64,000 nt of DNA. Origin: an uncultured Clostridia bacterium. Lineage in GTDB: Bacteria > Bacillota > Clostridia > TANB77 > CAG-508. Within the stretch, counting starts at the first letter, position 1. Every line of letters starts with the position of its first letter. The DNA lies in the NCBI GenBank assembly GCA_944386135.1, contig CALWZW010000002.1, positions 31,926 to 95,925 on the forward strand. The letters are read 5' to 3'. Below the pieces are notes generated by a model. It was not told where the DNA came from. It made no database searches and saw only the letters and a program-made list of their open reading frames with translations. The position numbers and the translations under genes were made by a program. Of this stretch, positions 44,162-44,416 are shown one piece after another.

Positions 44162-44212
44162 TCCTTTCTCGTTTGTGATATCGACATTATATCTTGTGAT
44201 TTTTTTATAATC

Positions 44213-44228
44213 TGTTGCATTTGCAACA
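44213..44228. promoter_or_regulatory. 16 bp palindrome TGTTGCATTTGCAACA (candidate operator), copy 1, about 50 bp upstream of nrdD
   Basis: Perfect 7-2-7 palindrome. An identical copy lies at 44396-44411. Confidence 0.5.
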
Positions 44229-44395
44229 TCCTTTTTTGACTATTTTGTTTTCTAATTCTAATTAAAGCTTTTTGCGAATTATTACAAATTTATTACATTT
44301 AATTGTCTTTTTGCTTTTATTTTCTAACATTCTTTTAGAATTATTGATTTTAGTGAATTTTATCAAATTTATTTTTTTAAAACCTCTCTTGTTTT

Positions 44396-44411
44396 TGTTG
44401 CATTTGCAACA
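44396..44411. promoter_or_regulatory. 16 bp palindrome TGTTGCATTTGCAACA, copy 2, immediately upstream of the Crp/Fnr regulator gene
   Basis: Identical to copy 1. Confidence 0.5.
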
Positions 44412-44416
44412 ATTTT

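Follow-up and report, generated by a model that had tools for sequence, protein, structure and literature searches.

Paired palindromic operators predicted to place class III ribonucleotide reductase genes under a divergently encoded Crp/Fnr-family regulator in uncultured gut Clostridia

Introduction

Oxygen destroys the class III ribonucleotide reductase, which in many strict anaerobes provides the route to DNA precursors. The closest described control of this enzyme is found in Escherichia coli, where the global Crp/Fnr-family regulator FNR, which carries a [4Fe-4S] cluster on an N-terminal C-x2-C-x5-C motif and a central cysteine, recognizes the palindrome TTGAT-N4-ATCAA and represses its own gene, fnr. 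In Bacillus-type Fnr a cysteine cluster is located at the C-terminus instead. A different kind of regulatory DNA is present ahead of ribonucleotide reductase genes in the NrdR regulon, which is defined by paired 16-bp boxes (acaCwAtATaTwGtgt) lying about three helical turns apart at nrd promoters. The nrdDG operon of E. coli, which bears a palindromic operator upstream, is activated by FNR (PMC4009431). A clostridial parallel is provided by the C. thermocellum variant of HcpR2, a Crp/Fnr protein with a serine at position 181 that is encoded divergently from its target and for which nTGTTGnAnnTnCAACAn has been predicted both at the target and at its own gene (PMC1274295). Among oxygen-responsive regulators of clostridia, those that we found in the literature comprise PerR, sigma-B, Rex and the Spx-like OseR (PMC11481553), and we encountered there neither a description of the palindrome motif reported below for a Crp/Fnr protein nor a Crp/Fnr protein of clostridia that controls nrdD, PFL-like enzymes or rubredoxin operons.

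In the present work we analysed a locus from an uncultured Clostridia bacterium in which nrdD and a Crp/Fnr-family gene diverge from a common intergenic region. An earlier note, made from the sequence alone, had drawn attention to two identical palindromes in this region and proposed that they form an operator pair. We report the distribution of these palindromes, their position relative to promoter elements, and the features of the adjacent regulator that bear on their function.

Results

Two identical palindromes separate nrdD from a Crp/Fnr-family gene

The window, by which we mean the whole 64-kb stretch of DNA that was analysed, contains TGTTGCATTTGCAACA exactly twice, at 44213-44228 and at 44396-44411 (neither assigned to a strand). 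The arms, TGTTGCA and TGCAACA, are perfect reverse complements separated by the two bases TT, and the two perfect 7-2-7 palindromes announced by the earlier note are therefore borne out at their positions. Its distances had to be amended: the nrdD-proximal site (site 1), given as about 50 bp upstream of nrdD, has its edge 63 nt and its centre 71 nt from the start codon, and the regulator-proximal site (site 2), said to lie immediately upstream of the regulator gene, is indeed upstream of it but ends 35 nt before the ATG. When up to three mismatches to TGTTGCATTTGCAACA were allowed, 10 matches were recovered in the window against 1.5 expected, a number reached in none of 100 shuffles. The core GTTGC-N4-GCAAC with at most one mismatch was found four times (0.67 expected), the two additional matches being located one within a 1327-aa ORF and the other between genes, where it lacks the promoter geometry described below. 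The latter (ATTGCTTCTGCAAC, 60591-60604, one mismatch) lies between the minus-strand ORFs 59529-60419 and 60648-61445, has no TATAAT at either the activator or the repressor spacing and is probably a chance match. Occurrence of the motif at many unrelated loci, among them positions inside coding sequence, which the earlier note had named as the observation that would speak against it, was not encountered within the 64-kb window.

The flanking genes are those that had been claimed, and the profile matches agree with a divergent nrdD and Crp/Fnr-family regulator. The predicted target nrdD (42020-44149, minus strand) encodes a class III (anaerobic) ribonucleoside-triphosphate reductase with an ATP-cone (NCBIfam NF006732, 970 bits; Pfam NRDD, Gly_radical and ATP-cone). 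Its start is conserved as MKVIKRDG at 44149, and the start in the ORF list is an ATG further upstream. The activase gene nrdG (41443-41877, minus strand; TIGR02491, 145.6 bits) is predicted to be a co-transcribed target, and its frame is broken near the 3' end. Translation of the nrdG ORF ends after 144 aa (...VVDRKICRRAKKP), and the conserved C-terminus of about 40 residues (GKFVEELKNPSLKFRGSSNQRIIDV...) is read in another frame within 41290-41560 of the minus strand; orthologues such as that of locus L056 comprise 174 aa. This apparent frameshift would reflect either an assembly indel or a pseudogene. Further along the minus strand, 40225-41287 holds two abutting ORFs of 172 aa and 180 aa, joining at 40767-40769, which might represent a single gene interrupted by a frameshift or a stop; judged from its translation, the second resembles the C-terminal half of a mechanosensitive-channel-type protein. 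Together with the broken nrdG, these split ORFs hint at indel errors in the assembly.

On the plus strand, a 208-aa Crp/Fnr-family transcription factor is encoded at 44447-45073 (PF00027, cNMP_binding, 1.8e-10; PF13545, HTH_Crp_2, 1.6e-7), with a GGAGG ribosome-binding site at 44436-44440 of the same strand, 6 nt before the ATG at 44447. It is matched by no curated NCBIfam equivalog, and public records name it merely "Crp/Fnr family transcriptional regulator". Besides nrdD-nrdG, murC also neighbours the regulator gene in the window, and a SpoIVB-like protein, recognized from its translation, is encoded at about 47100-48313.

The palindromes are conserved in related loci

Relatives of the regulator were sought in one genome per species, which led to the recovery of at least 578 species; the family is represented on more than 1000 metagenomic contigs per cluster. 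The best 80 loci from these species, all from uncultured gut Clostridia, encode proteins 51-84% identical to the regulator. We detected nrdD in 73 of these 80 loci; in about 70 it diverges from the regulator gene, with both palindromes in between. In two loci (L021 and L024) nrdD is found downstream of the regulator gene on the same strand, and one of the sites has been relocated with it, while in L056 a third palindrome precedes a second nrdD paralogue. This paralogue (MKIIKRDGTIVEYNPEKIKIAIQKANNEV..., 1-1000 of L056, minus strand) lies downstream of nrdD-nrdG and has its own TGTTGCTTTTGCAACA site at 983-998 as well as its own copy, at 1050-1066, of the TGTAAT repeat described below.

In the 699 kb represented by the 80 loci and the window, the core GTTGC-N4-GCAAC occurs in 128 perfect copies, compared with 0.08 expected from base composition, and nearly all of them sit in the nrdD/regulator intergenic region. 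The arms of the 128 copies are invariant, with no covariation, and the central four nucleotides are exclusively A or T (AAAA, ATTT, AATT, TTTT). Invariant arms around an A/T-only centre correspond to the pattern of a protein-binding dyad and not to that of a compensating RNA stem. Looping or co-operation between the two sites was also considered; since their centre-to-centre distance ranges from 91 to 405 bp in the related loci without a fixed phase, an obligatory pairing was not retained.

The two sites occupy different positions relative to the promoters

The loci were stacked on the palindrome to find fixed promoter elements. On the nrdD side, a perfect TATAAT begins 20 nt after the site in 57 of 70 loci and 21 nt after it in seven others, the window included, and the sequence at the -35 position (17-nt spacing) matches TTGACA at no more than two of six bases in 67 of the 70. 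The corresponding -10 hexamer of the window is TATAAT at 44186-44191 (minus strand), 21 nt after the palindrome and without a -35 element at 17-nt spacing. Placing the -10 hexamer at -12 to -7 brings the dyad centre to -40.5 or -41.5 of the inferred nrdD start, and in the window transcription would be expected to begin near 44179. The position of the nrdD-proximal operator, for which an orthologous site is present in 70 loci and which is predicted to lie at about -41.5 of PnrdD in the window, indicates a class II Crp/Fnr activator site at a promoter that would be weak unaided. As in described class II Crp/Fnr promoters (-41.5), the palindrome is placed 40.5-41.5 bp upstream of the start, the starts here being deduced from -10 hexamers, and no -35 hexamer is present; the sites described here additionally show, toward the promoter, a conserved flanking G(A/T)A.

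A different arrangement was observed on the regulator side, where the site is followed after exactly 9 nt by TATAAT in all 71 loci with an orthologous site (65 perfect, six with one mismatch). In these loci the left half-site, TTGCAa/t, matches TTGACA at three to four of six bases and is separated from the -10 hexamer by a 17-nt spacer. In the window, the -10 hexamer of the regulator promoter is TATTAT at 44421-44426 (plus strand), again 9 nt after the palindrome, and the left half of the regulator-proximal operator supplies a -35-like TTGCAT (44398-44403, plus strand) with a 17-nt spacer. The operator thus overlaps the -35 element and the spacer, with its centre at about -29.5. As the site spans -37 to -22, a protein occupying it would be in competition with RNA polymerase, and autorepression is therefore indicated.

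A second conserved element lies upstream of nrdD

The direct repeat TGTAAT-N5-TGTAAT is present at 44281-44297 (minus strand), about 60 nt upstream of the nrdD-proximal operator, and this is the sole copy in the window (0.11 expected). In related loci the repeat, TGTAAY-N5-TGTAAT, lies between the two operators, often in three copies with an 11-bp period (for example at 3603-3630 of L004). It was found in 64 of 81 nrdD regulatory regions, always oriented like nrdD and 66, 77 or 87 nt away from the operator on the nrdD side, corresponding to about -100 to -135 of PnrdD, and was absent from the PFL-like and rubredoxin loci presented below. The repeat matches the WalR/VicR-type consensus known from the literature, TGTWAH-N5-TGTWAH, which suggests that its binder may be an OmpR-family response regulator. 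The conservation of these repeats implies that nrdD has at least one further input. A further sequence, TTCGACAAA (in the window TTCGCAAAA, 44271-44279), adjoins the TGTAAT repeats or sits just upstream of the nrdD-side operator and was seen in L007, L018, L030, L038, L012, L031 and L036. It resembles the reverse complement of the Spo0A box, TGTCGAA.

Distant relatives link the palindrome to the regulator family

The recognition helix of the regulator reads VDRSSMTRE, and alignment by eye places Arg and Ser at the equivalents of CRP Arg180 and Glu181, and Arg at the equivalent of Arg185. Rodionov et al. 2005 (PMC1274295) showed that Arg180 is associated with the first G of TGTGA, and Glu181 with the A of this half-site. 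The half-site TGTTG agrees with this published recognition code for a helix of the Arg180/Ser181 type. The sites are 16-bp dyads of the type TGTnn-N6-nnACA, with TGTTG-N6-CAACA at both promoters and conserved in the 80 species loci. A profile-free search of 1.8 billion cluster representatives yielded 1365 relatives of the regulator at E<=1e-10, and among the closest 121 full-length relatives the helix D-R-S-A/S-M-x-R-E is nearly universal.

The genomic context was examined for ten relatives with 33-42% identity to the window regulator; relatives at this distance retain the recognition helix (DRSAMxRE). Four are divergent from an operon encoding a nitroreductase, a PFL-like glycyl-radical enzyme, a radical-SAM activase and an 80-aa GrcA-like glycyl-radical protein. 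Five are divergent from a rubredoxin gene, usually accompanied by hemerythrin, and three of these five operons also hold a fusion of about 843 aa (flavodiiron-rubredoxin-oxidoreductase). The remaining one is divergent from nrdD-nrdG-dcd. With the exception of L090, the intergenic regions of all ten carry TGTTGCAATTGCAACA or a one-mismatch variant, followed toward the target by 20-22 nt and TATAAT (TAAACT once). In L085 and L092 one site serves both divergent promoters, at the activator and the autorepressor spacings. By tblastn, none of the PFL-like, nitroreductase, rubredoxin, hemerythrin or flavodiiron targets was detected in the 80 nrdD-type loci or the window. As the regulator gene is the sole gene common to the loci of the distant relatives, the palindrome is best assigned to the regulator family, and we consider it most likely that the palindromes of the window belong to the adjacent Crp/Fnr-type regulator. 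The comparative evidence across loci and distant relatives therefore favours the operator pair that the earlier note had suggested for the neighbouring Fnr-like protein, and the conserved site pair at divergent nrdD and regulator genes is in agreement with its proposal of class III reductase control combined with autoregulation, both being read from sequence comparison.

The regulator has a predicted Crp fold and a conserved set of cysteine and histidine residues

The AF2 model of the regulator (pLDDT 82) displays the architecture of the Crp/Fnr superfamily, with a cNMP-binding-type barrel (residues 22-100), a long dimerisation helix (113-140) and a Crp-type HTH (170-193). The top Foldseek matches to the model were NtcA, CprK and CRP, and the best PDB sequence matches were Lmo0753, NtcA, Thermotoga TM1171 and CRP; no FNR structure was recovered among the PDB sequence matches at E<=0.01 and no FNR model among the NCBIfam matches. 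In the model, C18 ends the N-terminal helix, C43 lies in a barrel strand, C108 and C112 are in the loop preceding the dimerisation helix and H115 is in the first turn of this helix. The signature Cys18...Cys108-x3-Cys112-x2-His115 is complete in 76 of 122 aligned relatives, entirely missing in 30 and partial in 16, an all-or-none pattern suggesting that the four residues act together. In the nrdD-linked subgroup C18, C43, C108, C112 and H115 are invariant. The position of the extra cysteine varies with the subgroup: it is residue 43 in the nrdD-linked proteins, lies at about residue 37 in the rubredoxin group and, of three PFL-group proteins that were inspected, is found at about residue 55 in two. 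The regulator thus possesses a co-occurring, conserved Cys/His ligand set as known for iron-sulfur and metal-sensing regulators, and sets of three cysteines and one histidine occur in iron-sulfur regulators such as IscR. The most likely cofactor would be an iron-sulfur or other metal centre on Cys18, Cys108, Cys112 and His115, and we tentatively put forward the regulator as an iron-sulfur-type sensor of oxygen or NO.

Alternative readings of the palindromes

That the palindromes act as RNA hairpins, in the form of small terminators or attenuators, and not as protein-binding DNA, is what a terminator scan would suggest, since it flagged both on the plus strand as hairpins with T-rich tails and with predicted energies of -6.9 and -7.8 kcal/mol. 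These stems are weak, however, the related loci do not retain the T-runs, and site 1, into which no plus-strand gene reads, lies upstream of the -10 hexamer of nrdD; the 128 copies with invariant arms, without compensatory changes and with an A/T-only loop, argue in the same direction. Intrinsic terminators were accordingly rejected, and the hairpin reading is in our opinion extremely improbable. A scan of 44000-44600 against Rfam returned no family match, only a chance miRNA match. It is also conceivable that the operators serve another dimeric regulator encoded elsewhere, for instance Rex, NrdR or a Fur-family protein, the Crp/Fnr gene being a bystander. The one element in the window that could be quoted in its favour is a NrdR-consensus match, ACATTATATCTTGTGA (44184-44199), which is weak (13/16), lies beside site 1 and overlaps the nrdD -10 hexamer; but it has no partner box and is not conserved, and the window contains no more matches to the NrdR consensus than chance would give (6 against 3.4 expected). 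NrdR boxes were rejected on these grounds, and the earlier note was right that the palindrome is not the NrdR consensus. The palindrome, moreover, accompanies the regulator family ahead of three unrelated kinds of target operon, and its 16-bp TGT-N10-ACA layout and TGTTG half-site agree with what the Crp/Fnr code gives for a helix with Arg/Ser, which makes a foreign regulator very unlikely.

If both sites are bound by the adjacent regulator, the sign of its effect on nrdD has still to be considered. Crp/Fnr proteins are able to repress, and the window has, just downstream of site 1, a -10-like TTATAA (44205-44210) that could belong to an overlapping promoter occluded by the bound protein, in which case nrdD would be repressed too. 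This TTATAA is not conserved, GAAAA being found in its place in the orthologous loci, whereas the perfect TATAAT 20-21 nt downstream of the site and the missing -35 are conserved. Such an arrangement is that of an activator-dependent class II promoter and recurs at the other target operons of the family, and we regard repression of nrdD as unlikely, although less so than the involvement of a foreign regulator. Activation at nrdD combined with autorepression is the likely combination, judging from the two promoter geometries.

Discussion

The model that we propose is the following. A dimer of the divergently encoded Crp/Fnr-family regulator would occupy both palindromes as operators. At PnrdD, the site would stand in for the missing -35 element about 41 bp upstream of the start, where the regulator would recruit RNA polymerase in the class II manner. 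At its own promoter, where the site covers the -35 hexamer and the spacer, the bound regulator would block RNA polymerase and thereby exert negative autoregulation. Its activity would probably be set by a metal or iron-sulfur centre, formed by Cys18, Cys108, Cys112 and His115 and, in the nrdD-linked subgroup, also Cys43, which would report oxygen, nitric oxide or redox state and thus couple the synthesis of an oxygen-labile glycyl-radical reductase to this signal. For this model as a whole, comprising the operators, the activation of nrdD, the autorepression and a probable metal or iron-sulfur sensing, we have a good degree of confidence.

This scheme is close to that of E. coli FNR. In both cases a Crp/Fnr-family dimer would act at a palindromic operator upstream of the class III reductase operon, and activation of nrdDG together with negative autoregulation resembles what is predicted here. 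The operator is nevertheless different (core GTTGC-N4-GCAAC), the only N-terminal cysteine is C18, and in comparison with the global FNR the regulator looks local, adjoining its target. Bacillus-type Fnr is not matched either, as the regulator ends in ...RNKITLLY and has no cysteine after residue 112. The cysteine pattern and the operator, together with the lack of any FNR among the PDB and NCBIfam matches, led us to reject membership in canonical FNR and in Bacillus Fnr. With the C. thermocellum HcpR2 the regulator shares the divergent organization, sites at the target and at its own gene, a serine at the 181-equivalent position and the half-site of the predicted TGTTG-N6-CAACA. The general HcpR2 motif, GTAAC-N4-GTTAC (PMC1274295), is in contrast not matched. 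Co-localisation with hcp/frdX, which marks HcpR2, was not seen in the window or in the related loci, where the neighbours are nrdDG, PFL-like and rubredoxin genes, and the targets of HcpR2 differ from those found here, namely nrdDG, PFL-like and rubredoxin/hemerythrin/flavodiiron genes. The Thermotoga relative of solved structure (1o5l) aligns without the Cys-x3-Cys-x2-His segment. NrdR has in common with the present system regulatory DNA ahead of ribonucleotide reductase genes, but its consensus is unrelated to TGTTGC-N4-GCAACA. The kind of system, a Crp/Fnr dimer with a class II site and autoregulation, is well known, while the member found here, with its operator and ligand pattern, seems not to have been described before.

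The targets with activator geometry in the family are of two sorts: NrdD and the PFL-like enzymes are killed by oxygen or NO, and rubredoxin, hemerythrin and flavodiiron proteins remove oxygen or NO. Two readings are compatible with such a set. We slightly favour a regulator active under anoxia, in the manner of FNR; a regulator triggered by oxygen or NO, driving the replacement of damaged glycyl-radical enzymes and detoxification, would fit the sequence data as well. At the level of the family, we suggest, more tentatively than for the sensor function of the regulator itself, that an unnamed and widespread clostridial Crp/Fnr subfamily may be a dedicated oxygen/NO sensor of strictly anaerobic gut Clostridia. 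Its members would share the Cys...Cys-x3-Cys-x2-His set, the helix DRSAMxRE and the operator TGTTGC-N4-GCAACA, and through a site at -41 they would directly activate NrdDG, the PFL-like enzyme with its GrcA-like spare part, and the rubredoxin-hemerythrin-flavodiiron genes.

The locus offers a regulator-operator-promoter triplet in which a 16-bp site is combined with two promoter geometries and with five residues that are candidate ligands, and may provide a compact oxygen- or redox-responsive promoter part for the engineering of anaerobes. The regulatory logic itself will not surprise specialists; the family-wide link to glycyl-radical enzymes and oxygen-defence genes, in uncultured gut anaerobes and for a regulator family present in at least 578 species, is a useful lead. 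If the subfamily is indeed such a sensor, it would play a part corresponding to that of FNR while using another set of ligands.
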